DNA of 45,180 nucleotides from a virus. The position numbers and the translations under genes are program-made. Each line of letters starts with the position of its first letter. The first letter of the stretch is position 1. Where the stretch lies: the IMG/VR virus record IMGVR_UViG_3300045988_132224, positions 1 to 45,180 of that record. The stretch is one strand, 5' to 3'. The notes under the pieces were generated by a model. That model saw only the letters and a program-made list of their open reading frames with translations. It made no database searches and was not told the DNA's origin. Positions 3,879 to 45,180 of this stretch are shown here, one piece after another.

Positions 3879-3912
3879 TTCTTTTCACTCCTTCGCTAAC
3901 GCGCCCACATCA

Positions 3913-4128
3913 TTAATTACTTGTATTTCCGTCATTTCGTTTCAAAAAATTAAGGTCAATTCCTAAAATATCGGCCAATCTCGATAATACTTTCAAGCTC
4001 GGAGTGTACCGGCCTCTTTCCACATCTGCATAATATGCACGCGAAACACCGACCATCCCAGATAATTCCAATTGAGTTAATCCAGCCTTTTCACGAGCGG
4101 ACTTGAGCACATCTCCAATTTTATTCAC
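3913..4128 (-). CDS. Cro-like XRE-family HTH regulator
   Basis: GLTQLELSGMVGVSRAYYADVERGRYTPS HTH_3 motif. GTG start with SD GGAGGTGG. Transcribed divergently from the repressor. Confidence 0.8.
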   Translation of the reverse strand: MNKIGDVLKSAREKAGLTQLELSGMVGVSRAYYADVERGRYTPSLKVLSRLADILGIDLNFLKRNDGNTSN

Positions 4129-4285
4129 TATACCACCTCCCTTCTTTAATTACTTGTATTTCCGTCTTGCAAAGTAAGTGTACAGTATTTCCGTCATTTT
4201 GTCAATAGTATTTCCGTCATATTTATATTATAATGGTCTCAAAAGACGGAAAAACCGCACAAGGCAAAAATAAGGAGGGATTCTT
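4129..4285. promoter_or_regulatory. Divergent immunity (cro/cI) control region with repeated operator-like motif GTATTTCCGTC
   Basis: Direct copies lie at 4156-4166, 4185-4195 and 4208-4218, with an inverted half-site GACGGAAA at 4244-4251. TATAAT lies at 4229-4234 (+). Confidence 0.6.
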
Positions 4286-4903
4286 ATGAAAAGCATAGGT
4301 GAACGAATTAAAGAAGCGAGAAAATCGGCTGGATTGACACAATTAGAACTGGCTAAAAAAACAGAGCTTTCCCGCTCTTATATTGGCGATATAGAAAAAG
4401 ATAGGTATAACCCCAGTGTATCTACCCTGCAATTAATAGCTACAGCAACAAATACGCCATTGGAAGATTTACTTCCATCAACTAAGACGGTTTCCCCCGC
4501 AGGCCGGGGCGTCCGCATCCCAGTTCTTGGCCGCGTCGTGGCGGGCATCCCTATCGAAGCCGTGGAGGAAATCCTGGACTACGAAGAAATCACCCCGGAG
4601 CTTGCCGCGACTGGCGAATTTTTTGCATTAAAAATCCGCGGTCACTCGATGGAGCCGCGGATGATGGAAGGCGACGTCGTTATTGTCCGCCGGCAGGATG
4701 ACGTAGAGTCAGGAGATATCGCCATCGTTTTGGTCAATGGCAACGAGGCCACCGTGAAACGCGTGAAAAAGCAGGAAGACGGCATCACCCTGATTGCAAC
4801 GAACACGTCTGTATACGAACCGCATTACTACTCCAACAAGGAAATTGAAGAACTCCCGGTCCGTATCCTCGGCAGAGTCGTTGAGCTTCGGGGGAAGATG
4901 TAA
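4286..4903 (+). CDS. CI/LexA-like repressor (XRE HTH plus S24 autopeptidase domain)
   Basis: HTH GLTQLELAKKTELSRSYIGDIEKDRYNPS. Putative cleavage site VVAG. Ser in GHSMEP and Lys in ATVKRV form the S24 dyad. Confidence 0.9.
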   Translation: MKSIGERIKEARKSAGLTQLELAKKTELSRSYIGDIEKDRYNPSVSTLQLIATATNTPLEDLLPSTKTVSPAGRGVRIPVLGRVVAGIPIEAVEEILDYEEITPELAATGEFFALKIRGHSMEPRMMEGDVVIVRRQDDVESGDIAIVLVNGNEATVKRVKKQEDGITLIATNTSVYEPHYYSNKEIEELPVRILGRVVELRGKM

Positions 4904-4925
4904 TATAGGAAAGGATAATTTTATC

Positions 4926-5399
4926 ATGATATTAACTCAACATGAAGCAGACACATTGCGAGAAATAGAAAAATGTTTAGCCAGTCCAACTAGTGTCCGA
5001 CTTCCTCAACGACGAGAAACTAAATTGTATCCACTATGGTATCAATATAATGGCCGGAACAAGGATGATATGACCCTTTCGGCCTTCCGGGGCAATAAAA
5101 ACCCCAAAAAAGTCTCTTTCCGCTTATTATATTCTCAATGTATAATATTGGTAAGGATCGATACCCAGGATCCTACGCCACACACAAATCCAGATGGAAC
5201 AAGAATAGCACCGTTGGAGCCGCATATTCACATTTATAAAGAAGGCTATGGCGATAAATTTGCTTACCCCTTGCCAGAAGAATTTAGTCATACTAATGAT
5301 ATTATTGATTTGTTTATGGATTTCTTAGCATACTCACATGTTATCAACAGGGACCAAGTGCATCTTGTAGAACCGGAGGTGCTTTTTGATGGATACTAA
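4926..5399 (+). CDS. Hypothetical protein with His-rich motif (HTNPDG...PHIHIY), co-transcribed with the repressor
   Basis: This is the distal part of ORF 4794..5399. SD GGAAAGGA precedes the ATG at 4926. It starts 22 nt after the repressor stop with no terminator between them. Confidence 0.65.
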   Translation: MILTQHEADTLREIEKCLASPTSVRLPQRRETKLYPLWYQYNGRNKDDMTLSAFRGNKNPKKVSFRLLYSQCIILVRIDTQDPTPHTNPDGTRIAPLEPHIHIYKEGYGDKFAYPLPEEFSHTNDIIDLFMDFLAYSHVINRDQVHLVEPEVLFDGY

Positions 5400-6165
5400 T
5401 TTCGATTGGATTGCTGAATATTACCAATGGATAAAAAAGAATTTATCTGCCAGACGGTTAAAAAATGGATGGACAGAAATCGGCACACCGTTTATGGACC
5501 GTCATAATGATGGGCTGGTAATCTACGCTAAGAGGGATGGGGACAGCATCACTTTATCTGATGATGGATATATTATTAACGACTTGATTGCTGACGGCGT
5601 TTCCTTACGCGGTTCTAAGCGAGCCGCTTTTTTAAACGGTCTCCTTTTTTCTTATGGCGTCGAAAACCAAGACAATGAAATGGTGATGCGTACTACCCCA
5701 AAAAACTATGCTGTAAGTATGCATATGTTTATTCAAGCTATGCTTGCCGTAAATGATATGTTTATGTTAAACAATGCTACAATAAAAACCATTTTCTTGG
5801 ATGATGTCGCTAATTATTTTGACCAACAAGGCCTTATCTATACTCCAAACTTTTTGGCTAAAGGCAGTACAGGCCTGGAATTTAATTTCAACTTCCAGAT
5901 TGCTGGACGAACGTCAGAAATACTTATCAATTCATTTAATTCTATCAACCGAGGGAATCTTGCGGCGTTCCTATTTGATTGGCAGGATATACGTGATGAA
6001 CGACAGAAAAGGTCCCGTAAGAAAGTGAAAGGCTTAGCAATCATTAACGACGAAAAGGAAGTTGACAGAAAATATTTGGATGCATTGATCGCTAAAGGTA
6101 CAGACTATATTCTTTTTTCCGAACGATTGAAGCCTGAAAATCTCCAAAAATTAACGGCGGCCTAA
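5389..6165 (+). CDS. Hypothetical protein; from memory resembles DUF1828 (N) plus DUF1829 (C) family proteins
   Basis: SD GGAGGTG lies 7 nt before the ATG at 5389. It overlaps the upstream stop by 11 nt, suggesting translational coupling. Motif GWTEIGTPFMDRHNDGLVIYAKRDGDSITLSDDGY. Confidence 0.6.
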   Translation: MDTNFDWIAEYYQWIKKNLSARRLKNGWTEIGTPFMDRHNDGLVIYAKRDGDSITLSDDGYIINDLIADGVSLRGSKRAAFLNGLLFSYGVENQDNEMVMRTTPKNYAVSMHMFIQAMLAVNDMFMLNNATIKTIFLDDVANYFDQQGLIYTPNFLAKGSTGLEFNFNFQIAGRTSEILINSFNSINRGNLAAFLFDWQDIRDERQKRSRKKVKGLAIINDEKEVDRKYLDALIAKGTDYILFSERLKPENLQKLTAA

Positions 6166-6218
6166 CTCAATGCAAAACGAACGAATTTCTCAAATTTTAA
6201 CCTGATTCTGCAAGAAGT

Positions 6219-6294
6219 CTCCCGCCTCTATAGGTGGGAGTACGTTCACTTGTTTCAGAAATAAAAAAAGATCCTGAACATATTATTCAGGATC
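6219..6294. terminator. Two hairpins ending the repressor-cargo operon
   Basis: ctcccgcc/ggtgggag stem at 6219-6240. Perfect 9-bp stem gatcctgaa/ttcaggatc at 6270-6294, flanked by an A-run upstream. Confidence 0.45.
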
Positions 6295-6508
6295 TCAAAA
6301 ATAATATTGCAAAAAAATAAGCCACCCCCAGGGGCAAAGGAATTCTAAGCGTAATCGCCTACTCCCATTCGGGAACCCAGCCTTATCCTTCACAAGTTGA
6401 CTTTATAGTCATTATATCAAAAAAACGGGAAAATGCAACTATTTATTTTATGACACCTGTTCTTGACCAAACAAGATAAAAATAGAAAAAGTACCGGCAC
6501 CGTGCTGC

Positions 6509-6739
6509 GACGTCGTCATCGTCAAAAAGCAGCCAACCGTAGACTCTGGTGACATTGCCATCGTCCTCGTCAACGGCAACGACGCCACGGTCAAAGAGAT
6601 AAAAGAAAGCCCGGCCGGCATCACTCTCATCGGCCATAACGTCGCCGTATATACGCCCCACTTCTACTCCAACCATGACATAGAGTCTCTTCCCATCCAG
6701 ATAATCGGCAAAGTGGTGGAGATGCGGCGGAAGTTTTAG
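6509..6739 (+). pseudogene. 5'-truncated remnant of a second S24-type repressor (C-terminal 76 codons only, no start codon)
   Basis: It translates to DVVIVKKQPTVDSGDIAIVLVNGNDATVKEIKESPAGITLIGHNVAVYTPHFYSNHDIESLPIQIIGKVVEMRRKF*. This is collinear with the CI C-terminus DVVIVRRQDDVESGDIAIVLVNGNEATVKRV...VVELRGKM*. An in-frame TGA lies at 6464, and there is no ATG/GTG/TTG after it. Confidence 0.8.
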
Positions 6740-6749
6740 AAAGGAAGTA

Positions 6750-7520
6750 ATGAAAGATATGAGCCATCCTTTACCTAAATCCCATATACTTGTAAAACGC
6801 TATAGAAAATTTGCAAATTTTCTCAAAATGACGAGTAACAAAAATTTCCAGCGATTTATGTTGTGGATTCAACACTATATACAGCTGAAGTTTAATGAAA
6901 AAGAATTCAAATCAACCTTTTTACCAAAATATGAAGAAGGACAAATTATTTTTGTTGATTTCGGCTGCGGTATATCTCATGAATTTAGCTATCCTCATTA
7001 TGCAGTTGTTTTAAACTTGCATGATCGCAAGAAAAGCAACTTGCTTACTGTAGTACCTATGACATCAAAAAAGCCCAAACACAAAATATTAAAGCCATGG
7101 GAACATGAATTACAGTGTACAGTTCCTGATTTATTAGCTATGAAAGCCATGTCTGAATTTGACTTACAAAAACCTGAGTACAAGGATTTGCGAAATGATG
7201 TTATCCAGTTATTTTTACAAAATACCACTAAAGAGGAATTTGACAAAAGGCATCATGAGCTTATCGAAAGAGGCGTACAGGCTATATACAATAACAACTA
7301 TGACATTATGAGTTTTAGAGAAAAAATGAAGCAAGGGAGTATCGTTGAAACAAATCAAATCCGCACAATCAGTAAGTCCAGGATAATATTCCCAACGAAA
7401 AAATTACATCCACTTTATGATATTAAAGTTGATAAGCAAGACTTGTCTATCATTAAGTGGAAAATAATGAAAAATATTGTCATAGATATTATTGACAAAC
7501 CTGATGAAGAGCGTATATAA
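6750..7520 (+). CDS. Oversized MazF/PemK-fold toxin-like protein (N-terminal extension and ~95-aa insertion)
   Basis: GQIIFVDFGCGISHEFSYPHYAVVLN...LLTVVPMTSKK and GSIVETNQIRTISKSRI match the two conserved MazF/PemK/EndoA blocks (compare [25 protein letters not shown] and DSVILLEQIRTIDKQRL). Confidence 0.65.
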   Translation: MKDMSHPLPKSHILVKRYRKFANFLKMTSNKNFQRFMLWIQHYIQLKFNEKEFKSTFLPKYEEGQIIFVDFGCGISHEFSYPHYAVVLNLHDRKKSNLLTVVPMTSKKPKHKILKPWEHELQCTVPDLLAMKAMSEFDLQKPEYKDLRNDVIQLFLQNTTKEEFDKRHHELIERGVQAIYNNNYDIMSFREKMKQGSIVETNQIRTISKSRIIFPTKKLHPLYDIKVDKQDLSIIKWKIMKNIVIDIIDKPDEERI

Positions 7521-7794: not shown

Positions 7795-8874
7795 ATGACC
7801 GATTTAACCTATCACTTCTCTTTCAGAGAAAAGGATCGCGGCTGGCAGGTCATCTTATCGTACAAAGACCAGGCGGGACGCTGGAAGCAGAAGTCACGCC
7901 AGGGTCTGGCCACCAAAAAGGCTGCCAAAGCCGCCGGCGAAAAGCTCCTGGTCGACGTACTCGATGCAATGAAGAGCCAGCCAATTGCGCCGGAGCTCGT
8001 CGACATCTCCCTGGCAGAATTTGCAGAATACGTTTTCCGCAGCCGCAACCTGACGTATAACTCCGTCCTGGCCTATCGCTACGCGCTGAAGAATTACGGC
8101 CCGAAGCTTCTGGCCATGCCGGTCCGTAAAATCACCTATCTAGACATCCAGCAGGCGATGAGCGCCTGGCAATGTGCTGATGCCAGCTACCAGCTCTATG
8201 TAACCTGCCTCAAGATGGTCCTGTCCTACGCTGTCGAGCCCTACCATCTCCGGCAGGATAACCCAGCCATCCACTTGAAGCCCAGGAAGCTGAACCGCCG
8301 GCACAAGATCCGGGCGCTGACGCAGACCGAATTTGACCAGCTTATGGGAAGCATGGAGACCCGTCCGATGAAATACTATGCCATGTGTGCCATTGCTGGA
8401 TATACCGGAATGCGAGTAGGCGAAATTATGGCCCTCACTTGGGATGACGTAGATCTAAAAGAGCGACAGATTAGTGTTACCAAGCAATACGGCCGTATTG
8501 CCCATAAGAAGCGCGGGATCATGAACATCAAAAACAAGGCCGCCGGGCATCGTGTCATCCCCATTCCCGTCAAACTGCAGCAAATCCTATTGGCCTATCG
8601 CCGTTCCGAGCCGCGGCAAATAAATGGGCAGCTATTCCCGCATAGCCAGTTCTATAAATCACTAGATGGATACATAAAGAAGATTGTCCCTGATGCATCT
8701 ATCCATAGTTTACGTCACACCTATGCAACGATGCTGCTGGCCAATGGCACCGACATCAAGACCGTGGCAGCGCTCCTCGGCGACACGGTTACCACGGTTT
8801 TAAATGTCTACGTGGATTATACAGACGACATGAGACGGAAAGCCGCGCAGTCAATTGAAAAAATTTTTGCGTAG
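7795..8874 (+). CDS. int: Tyrosine integrase (lysogeny integrase)
   Basis: SD AAAGGAGG precedes the ATG at 7795, and the upstream part of ORF 7492 is discounted. Motifs AGYTGMRVGEI, HSLRHTYATML and LNVYVDY match the R...HxxR...Y pattern. It sits next to the repressor module and putative attP. Confidence 0.9.
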   Translation: MTDLTYHFSFREKDRGWQVILSYKDQAGRWKQKSRQGLATKKAAKAAGEKLLVDVLDAMKSQPIAPELVDISLAEFAEYVFRSRNLTYNSVLAYRYALKNYGPKLLAMPVRKITYLDIQQAMSAWQCADASYQLYVTCLKMVLSYAVEPYHLRQDNPAIHLKPRKLNRRHKIRALTQTEFDQLMGSMETRPMKYYAMCAIAGYTGMRVGEIMALTWDDVDLKERQISVTKQYGRIAHKKRGIMNIKNKAAGHRVIPIPVKLQQILLAYRRSEPRQINGQLFPHSQFYKSLDGYIKKIVPDASIHSLRHTYATMLLANGTDIKTVAALLGDTVTTVLNVYVDYTDDMRRKAAQSIEKIFA

Positions 8875-11059: not shown

Positions 11060-12094
11060 GTGATACTATTGAAACTACCAAATGGATTCGGCACGGTCTA
11101 CAAAATGCAAGGGAATCGTCGCCGTCCTTACGTGGCAAAGAAGACAATACAAGGGAAACAAAAGCCTATCGGCTATTTTGAAACATTCGAGGAGGCCATG
11201 GCCTGTCTCGTCGAGTATAATCGCGACCCTGCCTTGCTGAGTCCGAGCAAGACAACTTTTGCCGAGGTCTACGCGCTTTGGAAGGCCCAGCACTTCCCGC
11301 GCCTCCGAAGTGATTCTGCGCGCATCAGCTACAAAAATTCGTATCGTCATTGCTCCCGCCTCCATCAAATGATTTTCGTGGACATCCGGCTCGGCCACCT
11401 CGACCATGTCATTGACGATGTGCGTCATGCAGGCTGCGGATACCCAACGCAGAAGAAAGTCCGCTCTCTGCTCGAGCAGCTTTACAAGTACGCAATACGA
11501 TATGACCTGGTCGTCAAAGATTATGCCCGATATCTCGATATTGACCGACCTCGTAAACTGCACAAGAAAAAGCCGTTTACCGTCCGTCAGCGCAACCGCT
11601 TGTGGCGTGGCGTTGATGATGTGCCCGAAGCACGTCATGTCCTCATGCTCATATACTCGGGATGCCGTGTCGGTGAGTACCGTCATATCCGGAAGACTGA
11701 CGTCAAGCTGCGCCGTCGCGTCATCGTGATCCGGCACAGCAAGACCGATGCCGGTGCGGGCAGGCTTATCCCCATCCCTCGCAAGCTCATGCCATGGTAC
11801 GAGGAGGCTATGCAGACTCCCGGACTCTACATCTGCGGACGCGCAGATGGCAGCCGTCACAGCTACGACTCTTTCCGCCGCGCTATCTTTGACCCTGTCA
11901 TGCACCACTTCGGCATGTCGCATACGCCGCATGAGTGCCGCCACACGCTTGCCAGTATGCTTGACTCTGCCGATGTCAACCGCACCGTCATCAAGCTCAT
12001 CCTCGGACACAGCCTCGAAGGTGTGACCGAACGTGTCTACACGCATAAGAGCATCCGCGAATTGCTGAGAGCCATCGACAAGGTCTGTACTTGA
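11060..12094 (+). CDS. Second tyrosine recombinase (Arm-type N-terminal DNA-binding domain); candidate tail-fibre invertase
   Basis: LPNGFGTVYKMQGNRRRPYVAKK arm-binding-like N-terminus. Catalytic-pattern motifs SGCRVGEY, HECRHTLAS, LGHS and ERVYTH. The likely start is the TTG at 11069. Confidence 0.85.
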   Translation: MILLKLPNGFGTVYKMQGNRRRPYVAKKTIQGKQKPIGYFETFEEAMACLVEYNRDPALLSPSKTTFAEVYALWKAQHFPRLRSDSARISYKNSYRHCSRLHQMIFVDIRLGHLDHVIDDVRHAGCGYPTQKKVRSLLEQLYKYAIRYDLVVKDYARYLDIDRPRKLHKKKPFTVRQRNRLWRGVDDVPEARHVLMLIYSGCRVGEYRHIRKTDVKLRRRVIVIRHSKTDAGAGRLIPIPRKLMPWYEEAMQTPGLYICGRADGSRHSYDSFRRAIFDPVMHHFGMSHTPHECRHTLASMLDSADVNRTVIKLILGHSLEGVTERVYTHKSIRELLRAIDKVCT

Positions 12095-12190
12095 CGTATG
12101 CTTAACCGATATATGCACTCGCGTGATATTCCTTGCCATGACTGCGCCGTCCTGTGCTTAACCTGTCATTACGATTTCGCACGATTTACA

Positions 12191-44999: not shown

Positions 45000-45071
45000 T
45001 GGTATAATAAACTTGAGTATTTTGGTATGTGGCTGTTGTCGGCGGTTGCCGGCAGCAGCCAATTTTTTTTT
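45000..45071 (+). ncRNA. Candidate ~55-nt small RNA: extended -10 promoter followed by an intrinsic terminator
   Basis: TGgTATAAT at 45000-45008. A 13-bp stem ggctgttgtcggc / gccggcagcagcc (perfect with two G-U pairs on the plus-strand RNA) lies at 45031-45060, followed by aa-T9. Confidence 0.35.
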
Positions 45072-45180
45072 AGTAGCGGATAACCAGTTGCTGTCCCGGC
45101 TTCAATGTCGGATCCGGACCCAAATCATTATTGATTTGGATTTCATAAATCACTTCGCGGATGTCTTGCCCGCTCCGATC
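45062..45180. repeat. Second copy of the terminal 119-bp repeat
   Basis: Identical to bases 1-119. Confidence 0.95.

Follow-up and report, generated by a model that had tools for sequence, protein, structure and literature searches.

A phage-borne member of the PDC-M24 defence-candidate family within the lysogeny module of a temperate Megasphaera phage

What do two small genes do that are carried directly behind the CI repressor gene of a temperate phage? The question is raised by the IMG/VR virus record IMGVR_UViG_3300045988_132224, all 45,180 nt of which were analysed and are here called the window. The genes, termed A (157 amino acids) and B (258 amino acids), were singled out in a first inspection made without database searches (hereafter the sequence-only reading) as a cargo operon co-transcribed with the repressor and a candidate prophage defence system. 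The present analysis identifies them as a copy of PDC-M24, a two-gene family catalogued as a phage defence candidate (PDC). The explanation that we favour, and judge to be about evenly balanced between right and wrong, is that of a phage-borne PDC-M24 cassette which is expressed in the lysogen and whose two proteins would act jointly on nucleic acid against heterologous phage.

Genes A and B are a copy of the PDC-M24 cassette

Protein A matched Pfam DUF6978 (PF22398) over the complete profile (1-133/133) with an E-value of 2.1e-28 and 99.7 bits, against a gathering cut-off of 29.6. Protein B matched DUF1828 (PF08861; residues 33-121, 2.5e-24, 85.8 bits against a cut-off of 22) and DUF1829 (PF08862; residues 159-246, 2.1e-19, 70.2 bits against 22.2), the assignment that the sequence-only reading had offered. 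No NCBIfam model was matched by either protein. The motif that had been quoted for the gene A product, DPTPHTNPDGTRIAPLEPHIHIYKEGYG, is present exactly. Both genes are real and not chance open reading frames (ORFs), since 1439 DUF6978 clusters (50% identity) were found among 1.84 billion representatives and gene B has at least 630 relatives. DUF6978 is spread over Firmicutes, Negativicutes, Bacteroidota, Planctomycetota, Proteobacteria and others, and over phages of Staphylococcus, Streptococcus and lactobacilli.

In PADLOC, protein A matched PDC-M24A (PDLC04538) at 6.1e-46, with residues 1-146 on profile positions 1-141/146, and protein B matched PDC-M24B (PDLC04539) at 3.9e-91, with residues 1-255 on positions 1-253/255. 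Both matches are full length, gene order and strand agree, and no difference from PDC-M24 was found at the family level. The sequence-only reading had not recognised the pair as a named system; it is, however, already catalogued as this PADLOC candidate, so the pair is a new phage-borne member of a known family and not a new system. The profile searches that had been proposed as a check returned this defence-candidate family and no housekeeping phage function. PDC-M24 appears as the two-family cassette FAM_00129>>FAM_00065 in the supplement of Payne, Hughes, Fineran & Jackson (2024, bioRxiv 10.1101/2024.01.29.577857), and is one of 145 'phage defence candidates' drawn from genes embedded in bacteriophage exclusion (BREX), defence island system associated with restriction-modification (DISARM) and type I restriction-modification (R-M) loci.

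Genes A and B are near-obligate partners

The association of the two genes was assessed in two sets of relatives, the loci of which are labelled by L-numbers (L005, L022 and so on). The set seeded with gene B held one genome per species and 80 loci, 79 of them evaluable and one at a contig edge; these were mainly from Bacteroidota, and also from Negativicutes, Heliobacteria, Planctomycetota, Chlorobiota, Cloacimonadota and Proteobacteria. Gene A lay directly upstream of gene B on the same strand in 76 of the 79, as a full match in 67 and in partial or frameshifted form in nine. The set seeded with gene A was taken from metagenome and viral contigs and gave 111 loci (106 evaluable), in 104 of which gene B adjoined gene A, 100 in tandem and four convergent; the two exceptions were truncated fragments of gene A. 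Because adjacency was recovered from either seed, the pair is a near-obligate unit in both directions, and the co-occurrence on which the sequence-only reading had made its case depend was borne out.

Six divergent homologues of protein A, down to ~35% identity, all had a DUF1828/DUF1829 gene immediately downstream (6/6), and the A/B junctions of distant relatives measured -11, -4, 0 or +3 nt. Ten longer DUF6978 proteins were checked for domain fusions and told nothing further: two are probably artefacts of gene calling, one joins A to B, and others have N-terminal extensions in which no domain was recognised. At L029 (Megasphaera sp. MJR8396C) homology to the window begins at 5331 and gene A is deleted but for its last 69 nt, and at L068 a PIN-like ORF stands upstream of gene B in the place of gene A.

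Two closely packed genes whose ORFs overlap or abut, patchily and horizontally spread over many phyla, are also what a selfish toxin-antitoxin (TA)-like addiction module would look like. One protein would then be toxic and the other would neutralise it, loss would kill the cell, and prophages and R-M islands would be stabilised with no anti-phage action. TA-like neighbours (a MazF-like gene in the window, MNT/HepT in L007) are in keeping with this, as is the comparison with DS-6/HipAD, the sole validated DUF1829 system, which has been interpreted as TA-like. Through DS-6/HipAD, DUF1829 became one of five domains of unknown function newly implicated in defence (DefensePredictor, PMC13092281); the system consists of a DUF3037-DUF1829 protein, predicted to contact its partner and DNA, and a HipA-family kinase whose activity is required (PMC13092281). 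The present pair resembles it in having two genes, the second with DUF1829, but here DUF1829 is fused to DUF1828, the partner is DUF6978, and neither a kinase nor DUF3037 is present. Against an addiction module, neither protein A nor protein B matched a TA family in Pfam, NCBIfam or PADLOC (E <= 0.1), the DNA-binding antitoxin domain usual in type II systems is absent from both, and intact gene B survives in three genomes that lack gene A. We consider an addiction module unlikely, and TA and defence roles are in any case not mutually exclusive.

The pair occurs beside restriction-modification genes

The setting of the pair in other genomes speaks for the defence cassette that we favour. Among 135 immediate neighbours in the 80 species genomes, the commonest families were the type I methyltransferase (12) and the type I specificity subunit (8), and ResIII and HsdR were likewise represented. 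The pair also adjoins McrBC-like genes (L011-14), a DNA methylase with a HATPase (L005) and MNT/HepT (L007). This R-M neighbourhood independently reproduces the embedding signal by which PDC-M24 was defined, while the present copy differs in being phage-borne and in lying in a slot between repressor and integrase, not within an R-M locus.

PrrC, an anticodon nuclease that serves in defence, is a single protein with ABC-ATPase and anticodon-nuclease parts whose gene is typically nested between type I hsd genes. Many PDC-M24 copies are likewise nested in type I R-M loci, but the pair shows no sequence or fold relation to PrrC and the window copy has no R-M partner.

The same neighbourhoods could be read as those of a counter-defence or R-M accessory function, with which mobile elements would not attack phages but escape or adjust restriction by the host, or serve the needs of type I R-M loci; the frequent position inside or beside type I R-M operons and carriage by temperate phages and satellites would suit this. 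However, the pair lies on the lysogenic side beside the repressor, which is not the site of early anti-restriction genes, in Bacteroidota and other genomes the majority of copies are on chromosomes with no phage genes close by, and the window itself encodes no R-M system. An accessory of this kind is regarded as very improbable.

The repressor-integrase slot exchanges cargo

The gene B product is 100% identical to a protein named for Megasphaera elsdenii CAG:570 that occurs on at least 152 contigs, and the host of the phage is Megasphaera. The identical pair was found in many Megasphaera prophages, where it stands behind three different repressor modules (an S24 CI; a helix-turn-helix (HTH) protein with an ImmA-like M78 peptidase and a 213-amino-acid ORF; an S24 CI with another gene) and precedes two different integrases at two chromosomal sites. 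In L022 a homologue of the validated defence gene PD-Lambda-1 (5740-7386; 5e-157; SNIPE/T5orf172 domains) lies between an S24 repressor and the pair. Four further phages (L214 at 5797-7031, L215, L217 and L229) hold a divergent PDC-M24 allele in the slot, its proteins A' and B' being 38% and 31% identical to those of the window and both matching PDC-M24; gene B' is on the opposite strand and convergent with A'. The cro-cI and integrase flanks of L214 are 87% identical to those of the window. The slot between repressor and integrase behaves as a hotspot of cargo swapping in Megasphaera phages. Taken with the PDC-M24 match and the type I R-M and McrBC-like neighbours, the PD-Lambda-1 homologue supports the candidate defence role first proposed for the pair. 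Both genes of the divergent allele carry frameshifts in L229, and an Abi_alpha/PDC-S47 gene was noted in the early region of L024.

Temperate phages and satellites carry defence hotspots, for example those that Rousset et al. (2022) reportedly described in P2 and P4. The resemblance is that here, too, repressor and integrase flanks enclose interchangeable cargo including a validated defence gene, PD-Lambda-1; the difference lies in the phage lineage and its host (Megasphaera, Negativicutes), and in that exchange here apparently proceeds through the S24 repressor gene at its conserved 3' end. Sibling phages become homologous to the window at one of two points, either at ~4502-4508, the boundary of the cI HTH and S24 domains, or 115 nt before the end of cI, at 4789; the latter start was seen even in phages with an HTH/ImmA-type repressor. 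Behind the pair, 6506-6739 is the 3' remnant, still in frame, of a second S24 repressor gene and marks a recombination scar bounding the cassette. From the points at which homology starts and from this relic, S24 repressor genes appear to offer, in their conserved 3' part, a recombination site that shuffles immunity specificity and cargo. A 115-nt relic of an S24 3' end also stands upstream of the pair in siblings with non-S24 repressors (4789-4903 compared in L020, L022, L026 and L027).

Outside Megasphaera, the pair occupies the position between repressor and integrase in the isolated phages phiSP119-3 (Staphylococcus), Lj965 (Lactobacillus), TMW 1.1365 P3 (Latilactobacillus) and Javan249 (Streptococcus). 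In Javan249 (L017 2974-3447) gene A is an unannotated ORF of 157 amino acids upstream of the DUF1828/1829 gene and is a divergent PDC-M24A (3e-11).

This position would be expected of genes that serve the ordinary phage life cycle from within the lysogeny module, for instance in immunity, in anti-repression or in the control of excision. Against such a role, a 77% nt-identical pair was found in Megasphaera chromosomes without phage genes, the homology being restricted to 4920-6166, so that the smallest mobile unit is exactly the two ORFs. Most family members are likewise in non-phage chromosomal contexts, related Megasphaera phages exchange the content of the slot while keeping its flanks, and PHROGs lists both families (protein A, phrog_21094; protein B, phrog_5059) with unknown function. 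The non-phage contexts effectively refute a life-cycle role, which we hold to be extremely improbable.

Predicted structures and conserved residues

The structural models bear on how a defence cassette of this type might act. Protein B was modelled with a predicted local distance difference test score (pLDDT) of 88.7 as two domains, DUF1828 at ~1-128 and DUF1829 at ~129-258. The elements of DUF1829 follow the order helix 129-146, strands 152-158, 164-172 and 176-183, helix 188-209 and strand 212-219, which is an alpha-beta-beta-beta-alpha-beta core. In a Foldseek search of the PDB nearly all of the top 50 matches of protein B, and all of those with E <= 0.01, were PD-(D/E)xK nucleases (best E 1e-3, probability to 1.0); these included R2 endonuclease, Can2/Card1/Cdn1, VC1899, Bax1, R.BspD6I, AF1548, NucS and others. 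The C-terminal domain of protein B is thus predicted, from the model, to have a PD-(D/E)xK nuclease-like fold. No credible match came from searching the PDB by sequence, whether with the single sequences or with the profiles of the two proteins. A weak match of the protein B N-terminus to an FHA domain (E 0.0034) was rejected, as the four or five strands with helices in the model do not make an FHA sandwich.

In the DUF1828 domain P34, N40, D41, Y46, D58 and G60 form an invariant set. E177 is 94% conserved, with no lysine at +2. The near-invariant residues D139, N184, D200, R205, N220 and D221 could form a non-canonical site, as judged from conservation.

The arrangement of a non-catalytic N-terminal domain before a C-terminal restriction-endonuclease fold is that of Can2 and Card1 (CARF nucleases) and of enzymes of the Mrr/MspJI type. 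Can2, Card1 and VC1899 were among the best fold matches, although the likeness is one of fold and comes chiefly from the nuclease domain. The present pair differs in three respects: CARF, SRA and winged-helix domains were not detected, the D...(D/E)xK motif in its canonical form is not conserved, and those enzymes have no counterpart of the obligate small partner protein. No cyclase and no CARF/SAVED match was found in Pfam or PADLOC that would indicate cyclic-nucleotide signalling on the lines of the cyclic-oligonucleotide-based anti-phage signalling system (CBASS) or type III CRISPR.

Protein A was modelled with a pLDDT of 91 and a predicted template modelling (TM) score of 0.86, as a protein that is mainly beta and has helices at both termini. 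Among 172 distinct sequences H86 and N88 were invariant, R77, H100, H102 and A113 were each present in 171, P89 in 170 and K16 in 169; D79 was 96% conserved and E106 acidic in 93%. The H86-x-N88-P89 ... H100-x-H102 cluster suggests a metal-binding or catalytic site and not a passive antitoxin. This too counts against an addiction module, in which the small upstream protein would be expected to show the signature of a labile antitoxin and not an invariant, enzyme-like histidine cluster. Cupin-like (H-x-H-x3-E) and HNH (H...N...H) interpretations of protein A were dropped because structures of these kinds are abundant and went unmatched and because the secondary structure is unsuited. In Javan249 the H-x-H residues of protein A are replaced, the sole such case among the 172 sequences.

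Both proteins are hydrophilic (grand average of hydropathy -0.55 and -0.34), were modelled as globular and soluble, and are mildly acidic; on these grounds superinfection exclusion at the membrane, of the Sie/Ltp type, was excluded. No charge complementarity of the nuclease/inhibitor kind was found between A and B.

Position and proposed expression of the pair behind the repressor

The layout reported in the sequence-only reading was confirmed in its particulars. Gene A begins after a short spacer behind the repressor stop and a scan of the window found no terminator-like site in between; gene B overlaps the last 11 nt of gene A on the same strand and has its own ribosome-binding site. L021, L023, L024 and L025 share the 22-nt junction of repressor and gene A. 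No internal promoter for the pair was found within the repressor 3' end. With a 22-nt, terminator-free gap, the sequence fits co-transcription of cI, A and B.

The two genes had been described as richer in AT than the repressor gene, as they are: GC content is 39.0% in gene A and 38.5% in gene B, against 50% in the repressor gene and 49.8% in the whole window. This composition, counted as a sign of foreign origin, suggests that the pair was acquired.

Hairpins had also been noted after the pair and were recovered as two stems 3' of gene B (6217-6243 and 6269-6295; fold z-score -4.65). They have no U-tract on the plus strand, and the terminator scan scored hairpins at 6268-6296 and 6322-6337 as minus-strand terminators; for these reasons plus-strand termination past gene B is not established. 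The downstream hairpins lie in a separate mosaic segment (6200-6507) that is missing from L021 and L022. A terminator-like hairpin followed by T6 inside gene B (5609-5627) was taken as chance because it is not conserved in relatives.

Proposed function

The pair is proposed to be a horizontally mobile two-protein cargo module within the phage lysogeny module. In the lysogen it would be expressed from the distal portion of the repressor mRNA, which we infer from the short terminator-free spacer and the conserved junction. Translational coupling would then yield A and B in fixed proportion, probably acting as a complex, as the near-obligate adjacency and the mostly overlapping or abutting junctions suggest. 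DUF1828 of protein B would be the presumed sensor or binding domain and DUF1829, by its predicted fold, may bind or cut nucleic acid; the histidine cluster of protein A, with D79 and E106, would be a putative metal or catalytic site that activates or gates B. When a heterologous phage enters the lysogen, the module would attack nucleic acid, either by direct action on phage DNA or through abortive infection, infection would be blocked, and the prophage would gain through its protected host.

Several observations weigh against this proposal. In protein B the expected catalytic lysine, at position 181, is present in 95 of 181 sequences (52%) and is N here, and position 168 is D in 142 of 181 (78%) and again N here; since the canonical motif is not conserved, DUF1829 may be a nuclease-like fold without catalysis. 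The proteins are mildly acidic, with a median isoelectric point of 5.45 in the protein B family, which is unusual for a non-specific DNA binder. Protein A is without a structural relative, no significant match to its fold having been found in the PDB or BFVD (best E 0.07-0.09, TM-score <= 0.37), and its predicted metal site is read from residue identity. Intact gene B without gene A in L029, L032 and L068 indicates that gene A is not strictly needed to tolerate gene B. The convergent B' of the divergent allele cannot, by its orientation, be co-transcribed with the repressor. The 145 candidates are all described as untested (Payne et al., bioRxiv 10.1101/2024.01.29.577857), and a literature search found no paper on PDC-M24, mentions of DUF6978 and of DUF1828 being incidental.

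A bolder version of the proposal would make DUF6978 a new fold with a metal-dependent site (H86, N88, H100, H102, D79 and E106) and a partner of the DUF1828/DUF1829 protein in a new form of two-component immunity that is not reducible to TA, R-M, CBASS or another scheme already characterised. Protein A might, for example, make, destroy or sense a small molecule or phage product, which DUF1828 would read so as to switch a non-canonical effector of nuclease fold; this we consider distinctly unlikely.

PDC-M24 is a widespread and uncharacterised candidate, for which the window, as a complete phage genome, provides a natural expression context directly after a CI repressor gene. Sibling phages with a divergent allele or a validated defence gene in the slot form a ready comparative panel. 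Together, the expression context and the slot contents of sibling phages are strong circumstantial evidence for defence. If the favoured explanation is confirmed, a role would be assigned to three domains of unknown function, the defence repertoire would grow by one new fold, and prophage-encoded defence would be documented in Megasphaera, a genus abundant in gut and rumen; otherwise, the PADLOC candidate can be downgraded.

The phage genome and neighbouring features

An exact terminal direct repeat of 119 nt (1-119 = 45062-45180) identifies the window as a circular assembly. On its minus strand are genes for replication, terminase, portal, tail and lysis, and the replication genes at the right end of the window run on into the early genes at its left end. 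From the terminal repeat and this set of replication, structural and lysis genes, the window is a complete temperate phage genome (~45.06 kb). The order of the lysogeny module is cro on the minus strand, followed by cI, A, B, the relic of the second cI, a MazF/PemK-like gene, the integrase, the attP region and the lysis genes (Table 1). By megablast the module had no match among GenBank phages.

Table 1. Features of the lysogeny module and their positions in the window
Feature	Coordinates	Strand	Remarks
Operator-like repeats TTAATTACTTGTATTTCCGTC	3913-3933 and 4146-4166, in the repeated stretches 3905-3933 and 4138-4166		In and around the cro-cI intergenic region; one copy at the cro 3' end
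Cro-like HTH gene	3913..4128	-	Divergent from the repressor gene
GTATTTCCGTC, core of the operator-like repeat	4181-4218		Copies
CI/LexA-like repressor gene, 205 amino acids	4286..4903	+	First gene of the lysogenic operon; HTH_3 4e-17, Peptidase_S24 1e-28; phrog_4 transcriptional repressor 4.7e-41
Spacer from repressor stop to gene A, 22 nt	4904..4925	+	Contains the ribosome-binding site GGAAAGGA
Gene A, 157 amino acids	4926..5399	+	DUF6978, PDC-M24A; ATG at 4926
Gene B ribosome-binding site GGAGGTG	5375..5381	+	Within the gene A 3' end
Gene B, 258 amino acids	5389..6165	+	PDC-M24B; DUF1828 and DUF1829; ATG at 5389, 7 nt past GGAGGTG
Remnant (3' end) of another S24 repressor gene, 234 nt	6506..6739	+	73% nt identity to 4671-4759, in frame to its own stop; 5' part gone
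PemK/MazF-like cargo gene, 256 amino acids	6750..7520	+	32% GC; N-terminal PemK_toxin 3.8e-09; phrog_1412 1e-38
Tyrosine integrase gene	7795..8874	+	End of the lysogeny module; Phage_integrase 1e-19, Arm-DNA-bind_4

The MazF-like gene has no evident adjoining antitoxin gene and no PADLOC match. On the plus strand at 2347-2964, opposite to the early genes and between two antirepressor-like genes, lies an ORF of 205 amino acids with ~29% GC and a hydrophobic N-terminus; it has no Pfam or PADLOC match and appears to be a further moron. Between the lysis cassette and the tail genes lies a second gene for a tyrosine recombinase (11060-12094, plus strand), which is fully overlapped by an antisense ORF of 354 amino acids (11075-12139, minus strand); the recombinase may be an invertase for tail-fibre switching.

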